From NCBI GenBank assembly GCA_014896485.1, contig JADBKH010000005.1:7500-71499 (forward strand): a stretch of 64,000 nt of DNA. The letters are read 5' to 3'. Shown here one piece after another: positions 2,820 to 50,635 of this stretch (its first letter is position 1; each line of letters begins with the position of its first letter). The notes beneath the pieces were generated by a model. The model was not told where the DNA came from. It ran no database searches and saw nothing but the letters and a program-made list of their open reading frames with translations. Made by a program: the position numbers and the translations under genes. This stretch comes from Bacillota bacterium. Its GTDB lineage: Bacteria > Bacillota > Bacilli > Bu12.

Positions 2820-5225
2820 TCAATTGCGCACGGGCTTTCCCGTGGTCAATAGCGCGGCAATACGCTGTTGTGTCTTCGGCTCGCCACACAGGCTCAAAAA
2901 CGCTTCCCGTTCCAAATCCAGCAGGTAGCTTTCTGGCACCAGCGTGTTCTTCGGCACATCGCCGCCGGTGAGCACCCTGGCCAGCTTGGTTGCGATCAGC
3001 CGATCATGATCGCTGATCTGCCCGGCGACGTACATCCCTTCCAACATGGCCAGCAAGGTGCCATACCCCGAGACACCCAGCACGGGAACAGGTTTCGGTT
3101 GTCGTGGACGATATTGCTCCCCCAAGGCGAGCACACGTTGTTTGGCCTGTGCCAGCTGTAGATCGGACTGGATGGAAACCTGATCGGTCGGCCGTAAAAA
3201 TGCCCGGCTTCGCGCATCCTCGGCACTCGAAGAGACGGTGGCCATCGCGATCGTTTGGAAAGTATGGATCAGATAGGGCTCCAGATCGACATGGGTCCCT
3301 TCGGGAATCGATTCGATATGACGCAGGTAGAGCTCTTTGTTGCCGCCACCACCCGGAATCAAACCGACGCCTGTCTCGACCAGACCGAGGTAAGTCTCCG
3401 CATCCGCCTGAATGGCATCTGCCGCAAAGCTGATCTCACACCCACCGCCCAACGTACGTTGATAGGGCGCAGCTACAACGGGGCGATCCCACATCTTGAG
3501 GTGGTAAAGGGCATACTGGAAACGGCGAATGAATGTCTCAAGCAGCTCCCAGGGACTCTTGCCTTGGGCATTGGCTTGCATCATCATGCCGAGGTTGGCC
3601 CCTGTACAGAAGTTCTTTCCCGATGCTCCGATCACGACGCCGACAAACCTTGCCGGGAGCGATTCGACGACGCGTTCCAGGGCTTCGATGACAGCATCAT
3701 CGATGGTATTTTTGGGACCGTGCAAGTCGAGCAGCGCTACATCGTCACCGATGTCGTAAAGGCTGGCCCCATCATTTTCAAAGAGCTTCGTTCCCTCCTT
3801 GCGCAAGGAGGCAATATCGATACGCTCCGGCAAGCGCCATTGGGGTCGGTAGCTGCTGTGTTGTGGTTGCTCGGCATCCAAATGAAAGGCACCCTCTTGG
3901 GTGTAGAAGCGATCGTAGCCTTTCGCCAGCAACGCCTCGACAATAGGTGGAACACGTCCCCCTTCCTGGCGGATGCGTTGTGCTGTCGCTTCTACCCCCA
4001 GGGCATCCCACATCTCAAAGGGACCCGCTTCCCAGTTGAAGCCCCACTTCATGGCATTGTCGATTGCTTCAATGTCGTCGGCAATTTCCGGAACGCGTTC
4101 TGCAGCATAGCAAAGCGTATCGCGCAAGACCTCCCACGCAAATCGGCTGCCTTCATCCTCACCGCTTGTCAAAGCACGCAATCGCTCGGACAGCGATTTG
4201 GCTTGCTGAGCTGCACGCAAGGAGGGGAAATCCACCGTCTTTGGTGACCGGTAGGTAAAGCTCTCTAGGTCCAAGACTAGCCGCTGTCCCCGTTCTTTCT
4301 TGTAAAAACCTGCCCCGCTTTTGTCGCCCAACTGTCCCTGGTCGATCATCTTCTGCAAGATGGGCAGAAAACCGCCCAGGTCGGCTTCGCCGGTATTCTC
4401 AGCGACATGTAGCATGGTATCCAAACCGACCATATCGAGGGTGCGGAAGGTGGCACTGTTGGGGTGCCCCATCACCCGTCCGGTCAAGGCATCGACCTCT
4501 TCGATCGAAAGATGGTGGTGCTGCATCGCTGCCAAGGTGGCCAAAAAACCGTAATTGCCAATGCGGTTGCCAACAAAGTTGGGGGTATCTTTGCCAATGA
4601 CCACTCCTTTACCCAAGCGCCGGGTTCCAAACTCCCGGAACCAGCTGACCAGCTCTGGATCGGTCTTGGGGCCTGGCACCACCTCGAGCAATCTCATGTA
4701 GCGTGGGGGGTTGAAAAAATGGGTGACCAAAAAGCGGGATTGAAGGGCCTCTGGGAGTGCCTCGGCCATCGCCGCAACCGAGATGCCAGAAGTGTTTGAC
4801 GAAACGATGGTGTTTTCTCCGACGATCGCGCCTACTTTGGCAAGGATCTCTCGCTTGACGTCGAGCCTTTCGACGACCGCTTCAATCACCCAATCCACCT
4901 TGGCACATTGTTGCAGGTCGTCCTCGATGTTGCCACAACGGATTGCATCCGCAAACGAAGGGTGAAAAAGCGCGGGCGGTCTACTTTTGAGGACACGCTG
5001 TTTTCCCGCTTCGGCAAGGCGGTTTCGGACAACTTTGTCCTGCAAAGTAAGGCCTTTCTTTTCTTCTTCAGACGTCAATGCAGTGGGAACGATATCGAGC
5101 AACAGAGTAGGGATGCCAACATTGGCCAGATGGGCGGCGATCTGCGCTCCCATCACCCCGGCACCCAACACTGCGGCACGCCGAATGGGCGTTAGAATCA
5201 CGAAGCCTGCCTCCTTTGGATTCAT
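2820..5225 (-). CDS. fadN: Bifunctional 3-hydroxyacyl-CoA dehydrogenase / enoyl-CoA hydratase (FadN type, 801 aa)
   Basis: N-terminal NAD Rossmann [13 protein letters not shown] (HADH) and C-terminal crotonase-fold region. ATGA overlap with the upstream ACAD stop. Confidence 0.85.
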
Positions 5226-6361
5226 TTGAGCAGTGCTCGAGAGATGACAATGCGCTGAATTTCGTTGGTTCCCTCATAGATCTGCGTGATCTTGGCATCG
5301 CGCATGAAGCGCTCGACAGGATATTCAACGGTGTAGCCATAGCCACCGAAGATCTGCACCGCTTGTGTCGCCACCTGCATCGCGGTGTCCGAAGCGAAAA
5401 GTTTGGCCATGGAAGAAGCCATCCCGTGTCCGCCCCCATGATCTTCCATCCAGACGGCATGGTAGGTAAGCAAGCGACTTGCTTCAATTGCCGTCGCCAT
5501 ATCGGCAAGTTTGAACTGGATCGCCTGGAAATCGGCGATCGGCCTTCCAAACTGTTCCCGCTGCTTGGCATAAGCGATCGCTGCCTCCAAGGCCCCCTCG
5601 GCAATGCCTAAAGCCTGCGCGGCGATACCGTTTCGGCCACCATCCAGTGTGGCCATCGCGATCTTAAAACCCTCTCCCTCCTGACCAAGGCGGTTCGCTA
5701 TCGGCACTTCGACATTCTCAAAGAGGAGTTCTTGGGTTGTAGAAGAACGAATCCCCATTTTGTGGATCTCTTTGCCGAAACTGAAGCCGGGCATCCCTTT
5801 TTCCACGACAAAAGCGGTCACGCCATGAGCGCCTTTCGACGGATCGACTGTAGCGAAGACGACGTATGTATCCGCCGCTCCCCCGTTGGTGATGAACGTT
5901 TTCTGCCCGTTGAGCAAGTAGGTATCGCCTTGGCGCTGTGCTCGGGTTTGCAGATGAGCTGCGTCGGATCCAGCCCCCGGTTCGGTTAACGCAAAAGCCC
6001 CCAAGGCACGTCCTTCGGCCAGCGGGGTCAAGAAACGCTCTTTTTGCTCATCCGTGCCAAACCGGTCGATCGGCCAACTACACAGGCTGACATGCGCACC
6101 CAAAACGACCGAGAGCGAAGCATCGACTTTGGCGAGTTCCTCCATGGCGATGATATAACTCGTAAAGTCCGCTCCCGCTCCACCGTACTTTTCGGACCAA
6201 GGAATGCCGGTCAATCCCAATGCTGCCATGCGCTCGAAGAGGGTGCGATCAAAATGCTCTTGCTGATCCCGCTGCGCGGCACCAGGTGCTACCTCTCGTC
6301 GGGCAAAGTCACGCACCATCTCCCGCATCTGCCGGTGTTCTGGTGATTCGCTGAAGTCCAA
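5222..6361 (-). CDS. Acyl-CoA dehydrogenase
   Basis: Canonical ACAD motifs: [17 protein letters not shown], catalytic Glu in IYEGTNEIQ. Confidence 0.9.
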
Positions 6362-36080: not shown

Positions 36081-38312
36081 TCAGGCGGCTTCGCTCAGGA
36101 AAAGGCGCACCCATTCTCCAGCAGCCAGCGTCACCGTAAGCGGCTCGCCAGGTGACAGCTGCGTTGCAACACGATCATTTCCTTGACCACTCACCACGAC
36201 AGTCAGCGGGGCGTGCGAACCCCGCTGGAAGTGCAGCTGGGTAGTCCGAGCAGTTTCCAACGGGTTCCACAGCAAGAATCGGTAACCTGGCCCATCGACG
36301 CCCGCATGGGGATCGAGCAGATCAAGACAGAGCAGCATACATTCCTCATCTTCACTCTGTGCATACTGTTCAAACAACAAGGCCAACCAGAACACTTCGC
36401 CAGCCCCGTAGACCTCCTTGCCGATCTCCCCTGTCTGTCCCTCAAACTCCAGCATTGCCAAATTCTCATAAGGAATATAACGGGCACGCGTGTCATCAAA
36501 TTTGAAAAAGTAGAGATCGTTTTTACGCTGCAAGTTCAAAACACGCAGCATCAGAGGAGGAACGATGCCAGCGTCGATGAGGTGTATCCAGGGCAAGATC
36601 GCTTCGACGGATTCTTTGAGAGCCGGATAGAGCACAGAGGCGCAGGCCTGAAACATGCCCTGTACATTGACACCATGCGAACGGCGACTGGGATCACGAT
36701 ACCAATAGGCCATGCGCATTTGGGTGTCAAAAATCTGTTTCGCCCACTGGAGAGTCATCGGATCTCCTACAATCGCTGTCAACCAGGCCGCTGCAGCAGC
36801 GCCGAATGCCAATTCCTGGGGTTCATGATGCACCAAGTCAATCGGCAAATTGCACAAGACTTCCAGCGCCGTGTAGGCTTCCCGCAGATAGCGCTCTTGC
36901 TGGGTCAATTGGTAAGCAAGCAAGGCAGCGTACGCATACAGACCGTTATTGGCAAAATTGTAGCCATAGAGCGGCTCCTGTTGAGTCGCTTCATAAAACA
37001 TTGGAAAGAGATAATGGACTTTTTCAGCCAGAACGGTTGCGCGATCAAATGCGAGCAAGAAATCATTGACGAGCGTCGCATCGTTGGAGAGCAGAGCGAT
37101 CCATCCCCATTTGACCAAACCATTCTCGAAAAAGTACCAGCTGTCCACCGTTTCCGGTCCATCGGGTAGCGGAAAATCGTTGCTGATGAAGCGTTCCGAA
37201 GGGCGGAAAAAAGCATGGAGCTGTTTTTGCAGGACAGCGATGCGTTCTTGCAACGCCTGTGAACCAAAATCCCGTTGCCACAACAACCAAGGCCAGAGCA
37301 GATCGGTCTGGGTGACCAATTCCAAATGGGCTTCGGTTTCAAACCATTGAGAGCTCTTCGGGACATACGCGAGATACCCAGCCCCTTCTCCAACGGAAGT
37401 AAAGGCCAAGTTCTCATCGATCAATTCCTGTTTGGCCCCCTCTGCCACCTGATGCCAAGAGATCTCCGGTACGGGCCACGGCGTCGTGGTTGGCAGAAAC
37501 GGGACCAAGGCCTCTATCAAGGTCGAAATCGCTTGGGCAGCTGCTGGCGTCTGCTGCTGCTCATCGCAGCGGAGATACCACTGAAAACGCTGCTTCCCCT
37601 TCGGGAAGTCGCTGCCGAGATAGTCGTTTGCCCACAGGCCAATGCCATAACGATCTTGACCAGCAAAGACCATTCGCGCCGCACATTCATAACTGAGGAA
37701 GCGTGCCATGTTGCGATGGGTAAACCAGCGCATCTCTTCCATATCGAAGTAGAGGATCCAAACCGTCTTATGCATGGGATCATAGTAATAGAGCCCAGGC
37801 AAATCATTGCCCCGTACACCCTGTGCCGAAGGCGTCGGGTTGGCGATCTGCCATTGGTGCCATTCTAGGTATTGGCGATCTTGAAAACCGTGCAAATCGC
37901 CCAGCCAAACGACAATCTGGGGTTCAATCTCTCCTTGATGCTGCAGGGACAACGGCGCATTTAAATCTACCTGCACCGAAAAGCGGAACCACCCTTCGCT
38001 GGGTGAAAGGGTCACATTCCCCTCGAAAGGATAGGGAAGCGGTGCTCCCTGACGATCGGTCGCAAGGCCTTGTCCAGAAAAGAAAAGGGTATCCCCTTGT
38101 AGTGTCACTTGTGTTGGAACAAGATCAAAAGAAGGTCCGCTGATCAATCGATTCGGAAGGGAGATGACCTGCCACTCTCCGGCTTGACGGCGTTCAAAAT
38201 GATAGAGATAACCGCCTTCTTCTTGAAGCACGAAGCAGAGACGGGTGTCGCCGTTCTCTAATGCGACAAATCGCTCCGACAAGCGTTTGGGTTCGTCGGG
38301 CTGTGAGTACAT
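36081..38312 (-). CDS. Large hypothetical protein (743 aa); N-terminal beta-rich region and C-terminal helical, (alpha/alpha)-toroid-like, Trp/Tyr-rich region; possibly a glycoside-hydrolase or polysaccharide-lyase-like enzyme
   Basis: Long uninterrupted ORF with coherent coding composition. No motif I can assign confidently. Divergently paired with two Gfo/Idh/MocA genes. Confidence 0.6.
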   Translation of the reverse strand: MYSQPDEPKRLSERFVALENGDTRLCFVLQEEGGYLYHFERRQAGEWQVISLPNRLISGPSFDLVPTQVTLQGDTLFFSGQGLATDRQGAPLPYPFEGNVTLSPSEGWFRFSVQVDLNAPLSLQHQGEIEPQIVVWLGDLHGFQDRQYLEWHQWQIANPTPSAQGVRGNDLPGLYYYDPMHKTVWILYFDMEEMRWFTHRNMARFLSYECAARMVFAGQDRYGIGLWANDYLGSDFPKGKQRFQWYLRCDEQQQTPAAAQAISTLIEALVPFLPTTTPWPVPEISWHQVAEGAKQELIDENLAFTSVGEGAGYLAYVPKSSQWFETEAHLELVTQTDLLWPWLLWQRDFGSQALQERIAVLQKQLHAFFRPSERFISNDFPLPDGPETVDSWYFFENGLVKWGWIALLSNDATLVNDFLLAFDRATVLAEKVHYLFPMFYEATQQEPLYGYNFANNGLYAYAALLAYQLTQQERYLREAYTALEVLCNLPIDLVHHEPQELAFGAAAAAWLTAIVGDPMTLQWAKQIFDTQMRMAYWYRDPSRRSHGVNVQGMFQACASVLYPALKESVEAILPWIHLIDAGIVPPLMLRVLNLQRKNDLYFFKFDDTRARYIPYENLAMLEFEGQTGEIGKEVYGAGEVFWLALLFEQYAQSEDEECMLLCLDLLDPHAGVDGPGYRFLLWNPLETARTTQLHFQRGSHAPLTVVVSGQGNDRVATQLSPGEPLTVTLAAGEWVRLFLSEAA

Positions 38313-40731: not shown

Positions 40732-41382
40732 TCAAAGAATCCCGCGCAACCAGGCGACCCGGACAGCGTCAATACGCGAACTGACTTGCAAGCGATTGAA
40801 AAGTGTCCGAATGTGCGTCTCGACCGTACGACGGCTCAGTCCCAACTGCTTGGCAATCGCCTCGTTCTTCCAGCCGTCGGCGATCAATCGCAAAATCTCC
40901 AGTTCCCGCGGTGTCAAACTGTCGGCATCCTTTTTCCAGTCGTTAAAGCGTATGGTTATTTCCGGAGAAAAAACCCGGTTGCCCCGAGCCACTTGCCGGA
41001 CCGCTTCTGCTAAAAATCCCGGCTCCGCTGATTTGAGAAGATATCCCCAGGCCCCACTCGATTGTGCTGCGACAATGTACTCCATATAGTCATATCCACT
41101 CAACAACAACACCCGACTTTGCGGCGCCTGAAGCCGTAACTTCGGCATCAAGGCAAAGGCATCGCCGTCTCCCAGGGCAATATCGAGCAGGATGACCTGG
41201 GCCTCCATTTTTTCGATCGCACGAAGTGTCTCGTTGACGCTTGTCGCCGTCCCTACGACTGTAAGCCCGTACTCTTCCAAAATGCTTGCCGTCCCTTGAA
41301 CGACAACGGGATGATCGTCCACCACAAGCACCGTCACTTGCTCGGCCGCCTGTTCAACGCCGGAAGGGTGTGACAACGCCAT
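40732..41382 (-). CDS. LuxR/NarL-family response regulator (ComA-like)
   Basis: Receiver domain (VLVVDDHPVV ... phospho-accepting Asp in ILLDIALGDGD) plus C-terminal HTH_LuxR (LTPRELEILRLIADGWKNEAIAKQLGLSRRTVETH). The start may be the GTG at about 41337 (VTVLVVDDHP). Confidence 0.85.
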   Translation of the reverse strand: MALSHPSGVEQAAEQVTVLVVDDHPVVVQGTASILEEYGLTVVGTATSVNETLRAIEKMEAQVILLDIALGDGDAFALMPKLRLQAPQSRVLLLSGYDYMEYIVAAQSSGAWGYLLKSAEPGFLAEAVRQVARGNRVFSPEITIRFNDWKKDADSLTPRELEILRLIADGWKNEAIAKQLGLSRRTVETHIRTLFNRLQVSSRIDAVRVAWLRGIL

Positions 41383-43840
41383 GGTGCTGCCCCCTTCGCG
41401 TCTCCTGCCGCTGCTGAGATAGGCCGAAATCGGATACAGAGCGGCTGATCGGCAATGTCACATGAATGCGTGTTCCTTCCCCCGGAACCGAGTGCAGCGT
41501 CAACGTACCACCCATCCAGCGACAGCGATCCTTCATGTTCACCAACCCCGTATGTCCACTGACGATCAACTCATGATCAGAGAGTGGCTGAAAACCGACC
41601 CCATTGTCCCACGCATCGAGCAGTACATGATCTTCTTCTACCTGCAAGTGCATTTCGACATCGGTCGCAGCGGCATGACGCGCTACGTTAGAGAGGATCT
41701 CTTGAGCCAACCGATAGAGGGTCAATTCGATCTCCGGATGGATGCGCTCCCCTCGACGAGGGCCAGATGAAGTAAAGTGGACCGTAAAGTCTTCCCGACG
41801 CATCGTCTCTTCGGCCAACCATTGCAACGCAGCTTCAACGCCCAAATGCTCCAAGACCGTCGGGTAGAGTTGGGCTGCCGTCTCACGCAACTCAAATGCC
41901 GTATCCTTTGAAAGCTCGATGGCCTTGTCGAGCTGGCCGCGCAGCCGAGGATCGGCCAGTTGACCGCACACTTCTTCCATCAAACGCACGGCTGCCAAGT
42001 GGTTTTGCAGGAGTTCATCGTGCAGATCGGCAGCCAGCCGGCGGCGCTCCTGCTCCTGCAGCGAAACACGCAGTTTGTTCATCGCTGCCAGCTGTTCGGA
42101 ATCGCGACGGTTGCGCCACGATTCCCCGAGCAGATCGTCGACCCGCTGCTCAAGCTGGGCGATCAGACGCGCGTTTTCAAAAGCTGTAACGGCTTGGTTG
42201 GCGATCGTCTGCAGCCATGCCAAGTCTTGTCCGGACAAGCGCGTACGCGTTGTGCGCCGATCCAGGAAAAGCGCCCCGATGGTCACCCCATCCCGACAGA
42301 AAGGAACCAAAACCGAACCGGGCGCACCGGGAGGCAGGTACTCGGGTTCTGTCAGGGAACGCCACCACCAAGCAGCCGCTTCGACTTGCTGACGTAGCTT
42401 TTCGTTTTGGGCATAACTTCCTGCTGCTGCTGCCACATAGGGAAGGCTTTCGCGCTGATCCAGCACCAGGCAACTACCTTCCAGATGCATCACCTGCATC
42501 ACTTCTTCGCTGACCAGTCGTGTCAGTTCCCCAATGGTGTGCGGCTTTGCGATCGCTGCGCTCAATGCCTGCAGAGCCTGCCGGTAATCATACCAATCGC
42601 GAAAGACCGCTTTTTCAAGCCAACCTTGCAGTCGCTCCCGCAACGCCATAAAGGCGAGGAGCAACGCCAGGTTGATCAAGATGGCCGCTGTCACCACATT
42701 GGCTGTCAGTACCGTACCACTGCGAAAGATCAAAAAGAGGGCGACTGCATAGGCCCCCAGCAGCAACAAGCCGAAAAAACCGTAGACGAGGCTGCGGCGA
42801 AAGAGTGGACGGATGTCGATCACTTCATCGCGGGCAAAGACGTAGCCGATGGAAAGCGGAATAAAGAGAATGAAAAGGGTCCACAGCGGGTTTAACAAGA
42901 TCTCCGAAGGTGGACCAGCCAGTGGTTGGATATTGAGCAATAGTGTCTGCAGGCCGACCGTCAGCACAATCGGGGTAATTCCGACCAAAGCCCCAAAGAG
43001 CATCACCCGCAGCTGCGCCCGGACCAGTGGAGTAGTCGTACGCCAATGGGGCACGATCGCCTCCAGGCTCCAGCAGCCAACCCAAGCCAGGCTGATCAGC
43101 AAAGCACCCATGTTCAGCAGATGCAATTGGGTGAACCCCGCCTGATCGAGCAGTGCAACGATCGCCAAAAGCAGCGGCCAGGCAAGGATACCCCCCTGCT
43201 CCCATCGTTTTGCCGCATAGCCGAGCAAGTTATGGAAGAAAAAGGGTAGCGCTGCCGTAGCCGCAGCCAAAGCAATGCGTTCCAGCACAAAGAACCCGTA
43301 AATTCCAATGCTTGAGGGATGTGCGACAGCCAAGGCCAATCCTGCAGAGACACAAAAGAGATAGAGCCGATGGGCTGGGGGCCACCATTTGCGCTGTGCC
43401 AACACAAACCATCCGGCGGCAAAGAGGCTAATGCCCAAGGCGTACTCCAGCCAGAAAACCAAGCTTGGGCGATTGCTAAATGCGCCTATTGGATAGGTGA
43501 TATGAACGATACCATGCGAGGTCTGCACTGTGAATTGTTCGACTCTAGGAATCGTGGTATCCCCAGGGCGAATCACGGCTTCGGCCGGTTTGCCGTTGAC
43601 CTCCAAAAGCCGATCGCCGATCTGTATACCGGCTTGTGCTAGCTTGGAATCATGGGTGATCCCTGTAAAGATCACCTGTCCTGCCGGGTCACGTCCTACA
43701 AAAGCTTGCGAATCAGGGTAATTACTATCCAGCACAGGTATTAAGAGAAAGAAAGCCAAGAGGATCGGGGTAAAGACCTGGTGCCACCAAGGTCCTCCAC
43801 GCTCCTGTTCTTCCTGCGCTTCAGCGGTGACAGCACTCAT
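41354..43840 (-). CDS. Membrane sensor histidine kinase, ComP-like: PDZ-like extracytoplasmic loop, about 10 TM, cytoplasmic linker, HisKA_3 and HATPase_c
   Basis: TM1, then loop with PDZ-like GIQIGDRLLEVNGKPAEAV. Nine more hydrophobic segments. ERRRLAADLHDELLQNHLAAV is the HisKA_3 H-box; LLDAWDNGVGF is the ATPase G1 box. ATGA overlap with the upstream gene. Confidence 0.8.
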   Translation of the reverse strand: MSAVTAEAQEEQERGGPWWHQVFTPILLAFFLLIPVLDSNYPDSQAFVGRDPAGQVIFTGITHDSKLAQAGIQIGDRLLEVNGKPAEAVIRPGDTTIPRVEQFTVQTSHGIVHITYPIGAFSNRPSLVFWLEYALGISLFAAGWFVLAQRKWWPPAHRLYLFCVSAGLALAVAHPSSIGIYGFFVLERIALAAATAALPFFFHNLLGYAAKRWEQGGILAWPLLLAIVALLDQAGFTQLHLLNMGALLISLAWVGCWSLEAIVPHWRTTTPLVRAQLRVMLFGALVGITPIVLTVGLQTLLLNIQPLAGPPSEILLNPLWTLFILFIPLSIGYVFARDEVIDIRPLFRRSLVYGFFGLLLLGAYAVALFLIFRSGTVLTANVVTAAILINLALLLAFMALRERLQGWLEKAVFRDWYDYRQALQALSAAIAKPHTIGELTRLVSEEVMQVMHLEGSCLVLDQRESLPYVAAAAGSYAQNEKLRQQVEAAAWWWRSLTEPEYLPPGAPGSVLVPFCRDGVTIGALFLDRRTTRTRLSGQDLAWLQTIANQAVTAFENARLIAQLEQRVDDLLGESWRNRRDSEQLAAMNKLRVSLQEQERRRLAADLHDELLQNHLAAVRLMEEVCGQLADPRLRGQLDKAIELSKDTAFELRETAAQLYPTVLEHLGVEAALQWLAEETMRREDFTVHFTSSGPRRGERIHPEIELTLYRLAQEILSNVARHAAATDVEMHLQVEEDHVLLDAWDNGVGFQPLSDHELIVSGHTGLVNMKDRCRWMGGTLTLHSVPGEGTRIHVTLPISRSVSDFGLSQQRQETRRGQHHGVVTPFRR

Positions 43841-44766
43841 GAGCTCGGCTCCTCGTCGTACTGTAGCCATTGGCGCGCGATAGCCTCATCGGGAGCACAG
43901 CGTTGCGCTTCGGCTGCGATTGCAGCGCTGCACGCCCAGGTGTAGGCGAGACCACCGCTGGCGCGGATCGCTTCGCTTACCTCAGAAAGCGGCACCTCTC
44001 GGTGCTGCAGATAATAGGCTTGCAACGAATCTAACGCATCGCCCTTGGCTTGGTCCAGCGCATAGCGGACCGGCAGGGTGATCAGACGCTTTGCTAGATC
44101 GGCGAAACGTTGCGGATCCAGCACGGCCCGGGCATCGTTTTCCAACTGGTAGGCGACCCCGACCCGTCTTCCGAAGCAGGCCCAGGCCTGTTGGCGCTGG
44201 TCGTTGGCCCCAGCGGCCGCTGCCGCAAAGCGACAGATACCGCCAAACAGGGCGCCGGAACGGGCATCCAGAACCTGCAGAATGCGTTTCTCAGAGATGT
44301 CCGGCCGAAAGAGCTCCTGCTCCAACTGTGCTCCACTCGCAGCTTCAAGCACGGTTTGCTGCAAAATCGATACAACCGAATGGCCAGTCTTTTCGTCTAC
44401 CTTTTGTGCAGCACACAACGCCAACCCGGTGAGCTGCATCGAGACAAGGGCCAATTCCCCGGTCGACCACGTCGCCCAAGGAAGCGTGTCTGCATCCCCA
44501 TCGAGCGTATCATCGAGCAGATCGGCTGCCAAAAAAAGCCAACGACAGGCAAGCAACGCGTCGCAATCGGGGGCTACCTTTCCTTCGGCACGAAAGATAT
44601 CGGCAGCATATACGGCTGCATCGCGCACTTCTCCTGAGCCACATGCGTCATTGGTTTGTTTGGACAAAAAAAGGCCGTCAAAGAGCGAAAAATAGCGCTC
44701 TTCTGCGGCGTGCAGCGCCTGCTGCAAGTTCGACGCAACGCTCGTACGCAAAGGGTTACCGTTCAC
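43837..44766 (-). CDS. Polyprenyl-synthetase-fold protein with a single Asp-rich motif (ComQ-like isoprenyl transferase candidate)
   Basis: 309 aa; FARM-like LFLAADLLDDTLDGDAD (DDxxD). The second Asp-rich motif is degenerate (AYQLENDARAV). GTG start. Confidence 0.6.
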   Translation of the reverse strand: MNGNPLRTSVASNLQQALHAAEERYFSLFDGLFLSKQTNDACGSGEVRDAAVYAADIFRAEGKVAPDCDALLACRWLFLAADLLDDTLDGDADTLPWATWSTGELALVSMQLTGLALCAAQKVDEKTGHSVVSILQQTVLEAASGAQLEQELFRPDISEKRILQVLDARSGALFGGICRFAAAAAGANDQRQQAWACFGRRVGVAYQLENDARAVLDPQRFADLAKRLITLPVRYALDQAKGDALDSLQAYYLQHREVPLSEVSEAIRASGGLAYTWACSAAIAAEAQRCAPDEAIARQWLQYDEEPSS

Positions 44767-44791
44767 CGATAGGGTTCACCTTCGCATCAGC

Positions 44792-44974
44792 TCACCAGCA
44801 GCTTCCAACCGTGTAAAGGCTGCGCCCTTCACCTTTGCGACTCTGCTGGTCCGCTTCGATTCCGGAAAGAATTGCCCGCTGCTCACTCGGTGAAAGCTCC
44901 ACTCCCGCCATCGCAGCCTCTGGTGTCAACCCAGCGCGAAGTGCTTCCCAGACCTGTGCGAACTTTTCCCGCAT
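44792..44974 (-). CDS. 60-aa peptide ending ...YTVGSCW (candidate ComX-like pheromone precursor)
   Basis: Strong SD GAAGGAGGTG 6 nt before the ATG. C-terminal Trp, as in ComX precursors. Lies 25 nt upstream of the ComQ-like gene. Confidence 0.45.
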   Translation of the reverse strand: MREKFAQVWEALRAGLTPEAAMAGVELSPSEQRAILSGIEADQQSRKGEGRSLYTVGSCW

Positions 44975-45042
44975 ATCCTACACCTCCTTCGGCGCGATGT
45001 CACCACTTCTGCTAAGATTCGGCAAATTTCGCGCCCCTTCGC

Positions 45043-45074
45043 ATCATAAGCGTCGGCTTGTCGATAGACAAGCC
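45043..45074 (-). promoter_or_regulatory. Promoter with a perfect 8-4-8 palindrome GGCTTGTC-TATC-GACAAGCC overlapping the -35, then -10 TATGAT; candidate response-regulator box
   Basis: The palindrome at 45055..45074 is perfect. Minus-strand TTGTCT -17- TATGAT sits about 70 nt upstream of the peptide ATG. Confidence 0.45.
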
Positions 45075-48430: not shown

Positions 48431-50635
48431 TCATTTCTCCTTTCCGGCAGTCCAAAGGATTGCGATGGCCAGATAGATCCACATCGCCCCTGCAGCGGTC
48501 ACACCGGTATCGTTGATGAGAAATGCAACCACGCCAGCTGCCCCTGTCGCCCAAATGGCGGACTGCCACGGGCGAGGAAGCGGACGGCGATGATCCAAGC
48601 GACCGCGCCAAAGGGCTACCGCCCCGAGCAAAAGGGTGATGAGCGCCACCCAACGCCAACTGCTATAACCAAGTACATTCATATTGGCCGCCCACTTGCG
48701 GGCAATAATGTTGCCAATGTCAGAAAAATCGCCGCGGAACAAAAGGCCTACAGCACGGCCAATATGTGATGCAACTCCTGGCAGCAGCACAGAAATTCCA
48801 ACCAGCAACGCAACTCCCCCGAAAGCGCCGGCAAAAGTCCATGCCCAAGCACGCCAACGACGCTCTTTCAGGAGATAAAGGCTAAAAAAGAGTGCTGTTC
48901 CAAAAGCAGCGGTGATGGCGCCACCCGCATTGGTGCCCAAGGTCGGCCAAGCCAGGAGCAAAAGCACACCTAAAAGAGATCCTAGTGCAGCCATTTGCAC
49001 CCATCGTCTCGCTCCACCTAAGCTCACCCCAGCCCCGGCTGCCAGCAACGCACTGCCAATCAGTACCCCCATGTACTCGTTGCTGATCCCGTAGTTGCGT
49101 ACGCCCACAATCGGGTCGAAGGAGAGATAAGCATAATACATCGGCCAATCGCCAGCACAAACCGCAGCAGCGACGCCGAGCGCAACCGTTCCCAAAATCG
49201 CAAGGAGTCGACGCACGGGGTCCCGTACGGCAAAGGTCAGCACGGTCCATCCGGCCGTTTCCCCTACCAGCAGCAGTGCGTCGCTCCAAGCCGGCTGAGG
49301 TTCGGAAAGCGTCAAGGTAAGCATGGCCAACGGCACCACAGCCAGCGCTGTCCACAGGGGACGCAGCAGGCGTAAGAGCCCGCGTTGTCCCAGCAACAAC
49401 AGAACCGTACCAATCCCAAAAGCTATGATCAGGATCCACTCATAAGTCGCCAGTACACCACCACGGGTCTGGTAGGTCGTCACTGTCTTGTCAAAGACAG
49501 CGTGCAGGGTCTGCAGAGGATAGGTCACCTCCACGGCTGTTGCAGGTAGTCCGGACATCTGTGCAGGTTGCGACATCCCCAAAAAGTAAAGGATGGTCGG
49601 CGCAATGTCGACATTTTGCACAATTCCTGTACGCCGTGTCGTCGGGCTTGTCCACAATGTACCCGGTGGAATGTTCCCGCCTACTGCAATGACCGGTGCC
49701 AAGCGTTCCCCTTCTTGCCAAGCTTGCGTCGAGACGACAGGGGAGAGAATGATCAGCATCCGGTTGGGACCAAGCAACGGTAACAGTTGGCCGACAGTAG
49801 CATCCAAAGATGCTAAGAAATGTTGTTTTTGCTGTGCATACGCCTGAGGGCTCATCGCTGTAGCGGCACGATCGAGTCGTATGCCGTCGCCCGGATCGAT
49901 AACCGTGAGCGTCGCCTGCGGCAGAATCGCGCTCAATTGGCGGTGAATAGCGGCAGTATCCGCCTCAACGCCGAAAGCAGCCGTCGGTTGCGCCTGAAGC
50001 ACAGATGCTGAGACCGTTCCCCGGTCGACTGCCCCAGCTTCATCCATTCCTATCCAGGGACCATAGCGTTGCAACTGGTCAGGGCCGCTGTCCGCGTTGC
50101 CGATGACCGCTGTTGTCCCACCGTAGCGATGGATGGTCTCCCCCAACAATCCAACCACCGCTTTGGGAGGCAAAGACGCATTCTGCTGCGTTGCCTCACC
50201 TACACCAGCGACCAGAACATCGCCGGAAGGGGTGGAACGTCCATTCAAACGCCGGTAGAGTGTTGAACCGCTGCCAGCTCCGACAGGTGTCTGGGATACG
50301 AACTCATTACGATCCAGGGTCAATCCTGGCAACGCACCAGCAACCGCCTTCGCTCCCGCGCCGATCGTTGCGTAGGCATTGCCGTCACTGATGCCACCGC
50401 CTGTCGTGATGTTCATCAACCCCACCGCCCCATCCTCTTCCGCTTCATGCAGATGAGGCAAGGAGGAATCGATCAGATCAGAAAACGAAAGTCTGTCAGC
50501 TACCAATAGAATCACTTGTCGTTGCTGCTGCTGTGCATCAGCTGTCTCAGACGAGGGAAAGAGGGCCATCAGCAAAAGCGCAACGACCAAAGGAAAAGTT
50601 CGTGCTACTACATGAAGTCGACAATGACGCTTCAC
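48431..50635 (-). CDS. Membrane protein, paralog 1: N-terminal secreted alkaline-phosphatase-superfamily-like domain plus C-terminal about 10-TM domain (function unknown)
   Basis: Signal/anchor, then VILLVADRLSFSDL (Asp/Ser nucleophile-like start) and ...NVDIAPTILYFLG block, then polytopic C-terminus with YGISNEYMGVLIGS. Confidence 0.7.
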   Translation of the reverse strand: MKRHCRLHVVARTFPLVVALLLMALFPSSETADAQQQQRQVILLVADRLSFSDLIDSSLPHLHEAEEDGAVGLMNITTGGGISDGNAYATIGAGAKAVAGALPGLTLDRNEFVSQTPVGAGSGSTLYRRLNGRSTPSGDVLVAGVGEATQQNASLPPKAVVGLLGETIHRYGGTTAVIGNADSGPDQLQRYGPWIGMDEAGAVDRGTVSASVLQAQPTAAFGVEADTAAIHRQLSAILPQATLTVIDPGDGIRLDRAATAMSPQAYAQQKQHFLASLDATVGQLLPLLGPNRMLIILSPVVSTQAWQEGERLAPVIAVGGNIPPGTLWTSPTTRRTGIVQNVDIAPTILYFLGMSQPAQMSGLPATAVEVTYPLQTLHAVFDKTVTTYQTRGGVLATYEWILIIAFGIGTVLLLLGQRGLLRLLRPLWTALAVVPLAMLTLTLSEPQPAWSDALLLVGETAGWTVLTFAVRDPVRRLLAILGTVALGVAAAVCAGDWPMYYAYLSFDPIVGVRNYGISNEYMGVLIGSALLAAGAGVSLGGARRWVQMAALGSLLGVLLLLAWPTLGTNAGGAITAAFGTALFFSLYLLKERRWRAWAWTFAGAFGGVALLVGISVLLPGVASHIGRAVGLLFRGDFSDIGNIIARKWAANMNVLGYSSWRWVALITLLLGAVALWRGRLDHRRPLPRPWQSAIWATGAAGVVAFLINDTGVTAAGAMWIYLAIAILWTAGKEK

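Follow-up and report, generated by a model that had tools for sequence, protein, structure and literature searches.

A divergent ComQXPA-like cassette with the precursor gene in first position, probably a prenyl-tryptophan peptide quorum-sensing operon, in a Bacillota metagenome-assembled genome

ComX-type prenylated pheromones were long seen as a speciality of Bacillus, and the related enzymes PalQ and StheQ have come to light elsewhere only since 2023. ComQ of Bacillus, PalQ of Paenibacillus alvei, and StheQ of Sphaerobacter thermophilus all prenylate a Trp residue of such peptides (PMC5331326, PMC10853753, bioRxiv 10.64898/2026.08.29.745113). The 2014 census of Dogsa et al. places comX between comQ and comP and has it in some cases encoded on the other strand (PMC4008528). 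The PalP-PalX-PalQ cluster (PalPXQ) consists of three genes with the kinase gene first and no regulator listed (PMC10853753), and stheX is found 3' of stheQ, with no ComP/ComA pair described in the same paper (bioRxiv 10.64898/2026.08.29.745113). Here, we analyzed a 64-kb stretch of contig JADBKH010000005.1 (hereafter, the window) from a Bacillota metagenome-assembled genome (MAG) of 56% GC, which carries the label "Firmicutes bacterium" at NCBI. It contains a cassette of four genes encoding, in this order, a putative precursor peptide (X), a ComQ-like enzyme (Q), a ComP-like sensor kinase (P), and a NarL-type response regulator (A).

According to our analysis, this cassette is probably a prenyl-Trp peptide quorum-sensing operon of the ComQXPA type in permuted order. 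The four co-directional open reading frames (ORFs) run from 44974 to 40732 on the minus strand, where X and Q are 25 nt apart, Q and P overlap as ATGA, and P and A share 29 nt; the coordinates, overlaps, and motifs given in an earlier account made from the DNA letters only (hereafter, the sequence-only reading) all proved correct. The cassette has the gene structure and motifs of such a system, Q, P, and A are homologous to canonical comQXPA proteins, and cassettes in which X comes first recur in other lineages. It is intact and very divergent, and it belongs functionally with ComQXPA, from which it departs in two formal features, the gene order and the match to the ComX family. Terminal-Trp prenylation and the position of X before Q in PalPXQ are known already, and the PDZ-like loop is shared with canonical ComP. 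The X-Q-P-A order, of which the cassette is a very divergent example and which proved common among uncultured bacteria, is undescribed in the literature searched, where names resembling a precursor-first comQXPA order turned out to be other spellings of the Bacillus system.

Compared with the Bacillus subtilis type of ComQXPA, the same four functions are encoded on one strand. The enzyme combines a first Asp-rich motif (FARM) with an NDxxx sequence in place of the second one (pseudo-SARM), and the precursor, of 50 to 75 aa, has a Trp in its C-terminal region. The kinase consists of a first transmembrane (TM) helix, a PDZ-like loop, about nine further TM helices, HisKA_3, and HATPase, with homology to ComP throughout, and a regulator made of REC and GerE follows directly. 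The overlap of P and A is like that of the non-subtilis clade in the 2014 census, whereas the order X-Q-P-A is unlike that of every locus in it (PMC4008528). Further differences are that the window X is not recognized by the Pfam ComX model, that its Trp is the very last residue while that of ComX lies 2 to 4 residues from the end, and that a possible autoregulatory palindrome precedes the operon, whereas signal production in B. subtilis is reported to proceed without feedback (PMC7794433).

For the enzyme Q, an ordinary role could be proposed, namely that of a polyprenyl diphosphate synthase standing by chance between a spurious 60-aa ORF and an unrelated two-component system, an explanation that we regard as very improbable. 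It would agree with the NCBI name of Q, "polyprenyl synthetase family protein," with polyprenyl_synt (PF00348; 46.6 bits, cut-off 27) being the sole Pfam family matched, and with the best PDB matches, which are chain-elongating synthases. However, all NCBIfam synthase equivalogs score far under their cut-offs on Q (e.g., 57.6 versus 450), and in a sequence alignment the ENDAR of Q stands opposite the DDILD of B. subtilis HepT, so that Q keeps the FARM and not the SARM, as the sequence-only reading had stated. Chain-elongating synthases carry an RRG after the FARM and a His before the FARM DD, which serve isopentenyl diphosphate (IPP)/diphosphate binding. Neither of these chain-elongation features, the second DDxxD on the one hand and the RRG after the FARM with the His before its DD on the other, is present in Q, where the sequence reads AADLLDDTLDGDADTLPW. 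The same explanation would also have to account for a precursor gene with a strong Shine-Dalgarno (SD) sequence and coding-like codon usage, and for the presence of the same four-gene block in other lineages.

When 1.84 billion representatives were searched exhaustively by phmmer, 1037 matches to Q were obtained, the best non-self one being 34% identical (E 3e-17). Among the top 150, the SARM position reads Q-x-x-N-D in 82, S/T/G-D in 22, and D-D in 45, while among the top 30 the ND type accounts for 25, S/T/G-D for 4, and DD for 1; an RRG after the FARM is found in 16 of the 45 DD-type matches and in 3 of the 82 ND-type ones. Real ComQ proteins are among these neighbors, since P0051 of Caldalkalibacillus thermarum and P0007 of Paenibacillus tarimensis are the first genes of canonical Q-X-P-A loci (L001 and L004, respectively); the identity of Q to the ComQ proteins compared is 19 to 25%. 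In a 31-sequence alignment, G145 is invariant along with the Asp, Gln, and Asn residues of the two motifs listed in Table 1. A word-indexed homologue search with Q recovered Q itself and one weak match, and a profile built from the family alignment A1 recovered 9 proteins. On its motifs and sequence neighbors, then, Q groups with ComQ-type proteins and not with real synthases.

The AlphaFold2 model of Q obtained from the family alignment is all-helical and confident (pLDDT 86, pTM 0.86). In Foldseek it reaches TM-scores of 0.65 to 0.78 with trans-isoprenyl pyrophosphate synthase (trans-IPPS) structures and 0.70 with the indole prenyltransferase Ord1, which also ranks fifth (E 4e-35) when PDB entries are ordered by the Q family profile; no ComQ-family structure was found among the PDB entries searched. 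The fold is thus as expected, and discrimination rests on motifs and sequence neighbors. In this respect, Q207, N210, and D211, a triad that makes up the pseudo-SARM in ComQ, correspond to Q212, N215, and D216 of StheQ, in which mutations at N215, D216, and D219 lower activity by 83 to 98% (bioRxiv 10.64898/2026.08.29.745113). According to a 2026 review, peptide prenyltransferases resembling a trans-isoprenyl diphosphate synthase (trans-IDS) have repurposed the SARM for recognition, with a putative Trp-recognizing Gln near the motifs (PMC13290415).

The kinase P provides the second line of evidence. Its ATG at 43840 is preceded by GAGGAG and gives 828 aa, and an alternative ATG at 43870, without SD, would give 838 aa. 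HisKA_3, HATPase_c, and GAF_2 are its Pfam matches above cut-off. In a hydropathy scan the first TM helix covers aa 29 to 47, and the last of the further segments extends up to aa 410. BLASTP aligns P with the kinase of the precursor-first locus L002 over aa 67 to 807 (E 3e-62) and with the canonical ComP of L004 over aa 65 to 820 (E 1e-40), and the alignment with the ComP of L001 takes in the N-terminal loop. When the sensor domains (first 420 aa) of kinases from X-first loci were compared with those of canonical ComP by hhalign, a probability of 99.7% was obtained (E 7e-26, 355 columns); TM-rich profiles can inflate such scores, although the match covers the soluble loop as well. The sensor domain of P is, as judged from these alignments, homologous to that of ComP, and the ComP-like architecture put forward in the sequence-only reading stands. 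The PDZ-like character of the loop had been called unusual there, which it is not: the PDZ_6 and PDZ matches of P are under cut-off (23.5 bits versus 27), the L002 kinase and ComP of both L001 and L004 show these weak matches at the corresponding place, and the motif P-x-VG…GGLA..AGI.IGD.V..VNG can be aligned across all four. Between the membrane domain and HisKA_3 lies a GAF-like linker, absent from the account in the sequence-only reading, with a weak GAF match in the L002 kinase too; canonical ComP aligns through this region, yet without a Pfam GAF match, so that a divergent linker of this kind may be a general trait of ComP.

The regulator A, which sits in the position of ComA, has a start at 41382 preceded by GAAGGGGG and intact catalytic residues (D22, D23, D67, S95, and K117) in its REC domain, followed by the helix-turn-helix of GerE. 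It is 30 to 33% identical to the regulators in the ComA position of L001, L002, L004, and L009. As the combination of REC and GerE is found generically in the NarL family, it supports a ComA-type role without being diagnostic of it.

The precursor X reads MREKFAQVWEALRAGLTPEAAMAGVELSPSEQRAILSGIEADQQSRKGEGRSLYTVGSCW, i.e., MREKF...GEGRSLYTVGSCW up to the stop, and the 60-aa length, the strong SD, and the C-terminus ...TVGSCW had been reported correctly. Cys59 and Trp60 are encoded by TGC-TGG, with TGA as the stop codon. Its leader contains G-V-E-L-S-P-S-E-Q-R-A-I-L, a motif common to ComX-type and NHLP-like precursors, and among the features of ComX precursors we found a length within 50 to 75 aa, direct adjacency to Q, and a Trp within the last 5 to 10 residues. 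A codon-usage log-odds score, with 16 other window genes as its training set, is positive for X in its own frame only (+0.18 bits/codon, against an average of 0.26 ± 0.11 bits/codon for real window genes), and none of the off-frame 60-codon windows taken from real genes reaches this value. X thus looks coding. As PalQ specifically requires its Trp to be C-terminal (PMC10853753; PMC13290415), a terminal acceptor Trp is published chemistry, and the claim that this position is unusual does not hold: Trp is also the last precursor residue in L018, L020/L021, L028, and L030.

The contexts of Q homologues, gathered from several sources, were scanned uniformly for short ORFs beside Q, and a related-locus scan from a 6-sequence Q alignment contributed at least 2 genome loci and at least 20 metagenome loci. 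The scan pattern came from X-first-type enzymes, and the D[LV]LDDx[EL]DGD subtype is overrepresented in the resulting sample of loci. The canonical order is found in L001, L004, and L011, where polyprenyl_synt is followed by Pfam ComX (PF05952), a HisKA_3 kinase, and REC+GerE. In at least about 17 distinct loci an ORF of 45 to 95 aa with a Trp in the last 1 to 9 residues lies directly 5' of Q, so that the X-first order is not unique to the window. Complete X-Q-P-A cassettes, the order read from the minus strand of the window, occur in at least three other lineages: L002/L003/L017, with overlapping genes, a precursor ending …TPFEWP, and a Q cluster of 13 members; L009/L010, with a precursor ending …RAWIPPATLVK; and L018, a locus of 68% GC with a precursor ending …VSSVIAW. 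GC varies from 33 to 68% among the loci, the labeled examples of which include Bacillota and Ktedonobacterales MAGs. The leader motif G-[LVIF]-[ST]-x-x-[EQ]-x-x-[AIV]-[ILM]-[ILM] is present in precursors of both gene orders.

These loci bear out the warning that searches requiring Q-X-P-A order would miss the arrangement, since neither a census of comX between comQ and comP nor the Pfam ComX model would find X-first cassettes. They also point to complete circuits of precursor, prenyltransferase-like enzyme, ComP, and ComA, with the precursor gene first, in several uncultured lineages. Moreover, prenyltransferases acting on C-terminal Trp are under development for peptide lipidation (PMC13290415), to which the divergent Q would add a new scaffold. 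The gain for the window itself is modest, a plausible, intact, orphan quorum-sensing system.

Several side observations were made in these loci. In L004 (10677-12918, canonical) and L009 (5265-8035, X-first), a Lant_dehydr_N dehydratase and a thiopeptide-type precursor (PF19409 in L009) come right after the ComA-like regulator, which suggests that such cassettes may control antibiotic clusters of ribosomally synthesized and posttranslationally modified peptides (RiPPs). L002 encodes on its minus strand (4216-5592) a soluble kinase of 458 aa with GAF, HisKA_3, and HATPase, an additional gene transcribed divergently from the X-Q-P-A operon. A separate group is formed by L005 (6479-10720, labeled Ktedonobacterales MAG), L019, L022, L023, L025, L029, and L031, whose precursors have a leader of the type MEEQQIxxFVHRxSTDExLRKEL…, end in a C-terminal WW like that of StheX, and lie 5' of a ComQ-like gene; multi-TM kinases of about 970 to 1030 aa follow Q where the contig extends (that of L005 with HisKA, not HisKA_3), and no NarL-type regulator was detected beside Q or the kinase in these loci. 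This Ktedonobacterales type is closer to StheX than the window cassette is.

StheQ itself is, like Q, a ComQ homologue outside Bacillus with a FARM, a pseudo-SARM, a trans-IPPS fold, and an Ord1-like active site, and StheX, of about 69 aa, likewise has a Trp at its C-terminal end; there, however, the acceptor is the penultimate residue and belongs to a WW pair (bioRxiv 10.64898/2026.08.29.745113). With PalPXQ, the window shares the position of the precursor gene directly 5' of the prenyltransferase gene, the C-terminal acceptor Trp (in the window a predicted one), and a histidine kinase in the cluster (PMC10853753). The precursor PalX is described as being of the NHLP type (PMC10853753), to which X gives a weak sub-threshold match. 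PalQ is trans-IDS-like, as Q is, and makes a C3-prenylated, ring-closed Trp, the product predicted for Q; it is set apart from Q by its published description, with D200/D204 at the SARM, a similarity cluster of its own, and an annotation as terpene synthase (PMC10853753), whereas Q matches PF00348 and has the ComQ-type N-D (N-D-A-R-A at the SARM).

This likeness raises the question of whether the cassette is rather a PalPXQ-type gene cluster for a RiPP natural product. Its prenylated peptide would then act as a secondary metabolite, e.g., a membrane-active or antimicrobial lipopeptide, and the two-component system would regulate or protect without sensing the peptide. We consider this unlikely. 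It would fit the precursor gene preceding Q and ending in Trp as PalX does, the adjacency of PalQ to a histidine kinase (PMC10853753), and the observation that peptides become more strongly antimicrobial when prenylated (PMC13290415). In addition, NHLP- or Nif11-clan leader models are the best match for 6 of the 9 X-first precursors scanned, window X included, all of them under cut-off (the strongest at E 2e-5 and 5e-5). On the other hand, the kinase sensor domain shows homology across 355 columns to that of ComP, which is the known receptor of ComX, the NarL-type regulator is translationally coupled to the kinase as in comQXPA, and no transporter, protease, or immunity gene is found among the near neighbors of the cassette. 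These are housekeeping genes, encoding TatC, MoCF, MoaC, 5-FTHF cyclo-ligase, PAP2, two GFO/IDH/MocA oxidoreductases, and GroEL; in light of this, and since GC and GC at third codon positions (GC3) of X, Q, P, and A are in line with the window, the cassette looks native and not a binning artefact. A metabolite role would, moreover, be compatible with quorum sensing, as the two are not mutually exclusive.

A number of results weigh against the assignment of the cassette to prenyl-Trp quorum sensing, most of them concerning X. The Pfam searches proposed with the sequence-only reading agree with it for Q (polyprenyl_synt) and P (HisKA_3), while the PDZ match of P is sub-threshold and ComX (PF05952) gives no match to X at E≤1. 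Of 784 window ORFs, X is the best match to a hidden Markov model (HMM) made from 8 peptides encoded beside Q, with an E value of 0.42 that makes this rank no more than a hint, and the NHLP-clan model NF038399 scores 13.8 bits (E 0.046), below its cut-off of 40. In a collection of 5.8 billion proteins, X finds itself alone, annotated as hypothetical protein IMW91_01445, and no close relative of the whole cassette is present; of the expectation that the 60-aa ORF is kept in relatives, what stands is that short Trp-tailed ORFs recur beside Q. The status of X accordingly depends on its position, SD, codon usage, C-terminal Trp, and family-level synteny. The ratio of about 17 X-first to 3 Q-first loci is not an unbiased frequency, because the scan pattern derives from X-first-type sequences. 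Finally, in a crude neighbor-joining tree, window Q is joined by the Q clusters of L008 and L016, whose paired peptides are Trp-less, so that a Trp acceptor in the window is not guaranteed.

The latter peptides, conserved, 51 aa long, and encoded directly 5' of ComQ-like genes (L008 1794-1949, identical to L012, and L016 2582-2737), end in ...VFSC and ...VFAC, respectively, contain no Trp anywhere, and have TGA as the stop after Cys in both cases. Since MAFFT places their terminal Cys opposite Cys59 of ...VGSCW, it might be supposed that Cys59, instead of or besides Trp60, is modified by S-prenylation or forms a disulfide-linked dimer, with a signal chemically unlike ComX. We deem this distinctly unlikely, given that the characterized peptide prenyltransferases of the trans-IDS-like kind all have Trp as their acceptor (PMC13290415) and that Q retains the Gln and Asn implicated in positioning the indole. 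Homology between window X and the Cys-terminated L008 peptide is unsupported (BLASTP E 0.18), and we treat it as a lead only. That L008 and L016 lack the Trp would be accounted for just as well by a change of TGG to TGA, or by UGA being read through as Trp, as by a Cys acceptor. An even wider proposal would be that the cassette is part of a widespread precursor-first prenyl-peptide branch bridging NHLP-leader RiPP clusters such as PalPXQ and ComQXPA, with Cys-Trp chemistry beyond that of ComX (S-prenyl-Cys or a Cys-dependent cross-link, besides or instead of prenyl-Trp) and autoregulation, positive or negative, through the palindrome. The extra chemistry is hinted at by the Trp-less, Cys-terminated precursors of L008/L016, and we hold the proposal as a whole to be unlikely.

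Under the prenyl-Trp quorum-sensing assignment, a circuit can be proposed in which prenylation, acceptor residue, processing site, signaling, and regulatory targets are inferred by analogy with ComQ/ComX, PalQ/PalX, and StheQ/StheX. The 60-aa precursor X, made of leader and core, would be bound by the ComQ-like Q, with Mg2+ and a prenyl diphosphate (geranyl or farnesyl diphosphate) held at the FARM and the indole positioned by the Q/N/D pocket. C3 of Trp60 would receive the prenyl group and a ring would close onto the backbone nitrogen of this residue, as for ComX, PalX, and StheX, after which the leader would be cut off and the lipopeptide exported by other factors; to our knowledge, no export or processing factor is known for the ComX-type peptide in Bacillus either. 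Outside the cell, the ComP-like kinase would perceive the peptide through its multi-TM/PDZ-like sensor domain, autophosphorylate at H617, and hand the phosphate on to D67 in the NarL-type regulator, which would control its target promoters and maybe its own operon via the 8-4-8 palindrome.

Table 1. Features of the X-Q-P-A cassette and of the region upstream of X, in window coordinates
Feature	Position	Strand	Basis
X, 60-aa precursor peptide	44792..44974	-	ORF, SD, codon-usage frame test
Q, 309-aa ComQ-like trans-IPPS-fold putative peptide prenyltransferase, GTG start	43837..44766	-	PF00348, AlphaFold2 model, Foldseek, ND-type neighbors
P, 828-aa ComP-like sensor histidine kinase	41354..43840	-	ORF, Pfam, BLASTP, hhalign
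A, 216-aa NarL/LuxR-type response regulator	40732..41382	-	Pfam Response_reg + GerE
FARM region of Q, DLLDDTLDGD, aa 82-91 (DDTLD = aa 85-89)	44494..44523	-	D85, D86, D89 invariant in family alignment
Pseudo-SARM of Q, Q207-L-E-N210-D211, replaces DDxxD	44134..44148	-	Q207, N210, D211 invariant in family alignment
Sensor domain of P: TM1, ~90-aa extracytoplasmic loop, ~9 further TM	42641..43786	-	Hydropathy scan; aa 29-410, 838-aa numbering
PDZ-like segment of P loop 1 (…LAQAGIQIGDRLLEVNGKP…)	43577..43678	-	PF17820 23.5 bits, PF00595 19.8 bits, sub-cut-off
GAF-like linker of P, aa 444-565	42176..42541	-	PF13185 28.9 bits vs cut-off 28.6
HisKA_3 (H617 in DLHDE) + HATPase_c (N728, DNGVGF, GHTGL) of P	41447..42049	-	Pfam + motif reading
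Shine-Dalgarno sequence of X, GAAGGAGGTG, 6 nt 5' of ATG	44981..44990	-	Read from sequence
Exact 8-4-8 palindrome GGCTTGTCtatcGACAAGCC = GGCTTGTC-N4-GACAAGCC, 81-100 nt 5' of X start	45055..45074	-	Read from sequence
Sigma-70-like promoter match TTGTCT-17-TATGAT, 9/12 positions	45043..45071	-	Consensus match only; 3 sites seen vs 1.8 expected

ComA boxes are inverted repeats with a 4-nt spacing, and the palindrome upstream of X, which had been noted in the sequence-only reading and is exact, has the same geometry. An exact 8-bp inverted repeat is rare by chance, arising in 89 of 5000 shuffles of the intergenic region. The palindrome may serve the NarL-type regulator as an operator, activating or repressing, or may be functionless; it overlaps the -35-like hexamer of the only decent promoter match, and a position over the predicted -35 suits repression at least as much as activation, a further point against the circuit as drawn above. 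In the 64-kb window no second good copy was found, and matches with two mismatches number 7 versus 2.6 expected, a count reached in 3 of 100 shuffles. The idea of an operator common to X-first loci was rejected, as L002 has no palindrome 5' of X and those of L005, L007, and L009 show no sequence relationship.

As for the wider surroundings, two large ORFs on the minus strand, 36081..38312 (743 aa) and 48431..50635 (734 aa), flank the region and match no Pfam family at E≤1e-5. Neither tRNA genes nor Rfam families at gathering score were detected across the whole 64-kb window. Nearly all long ORFs of the window lie on the minus strand, and GC skew is negative in 31 of its 32 2-kb segments and +0.005 in the remaining one.

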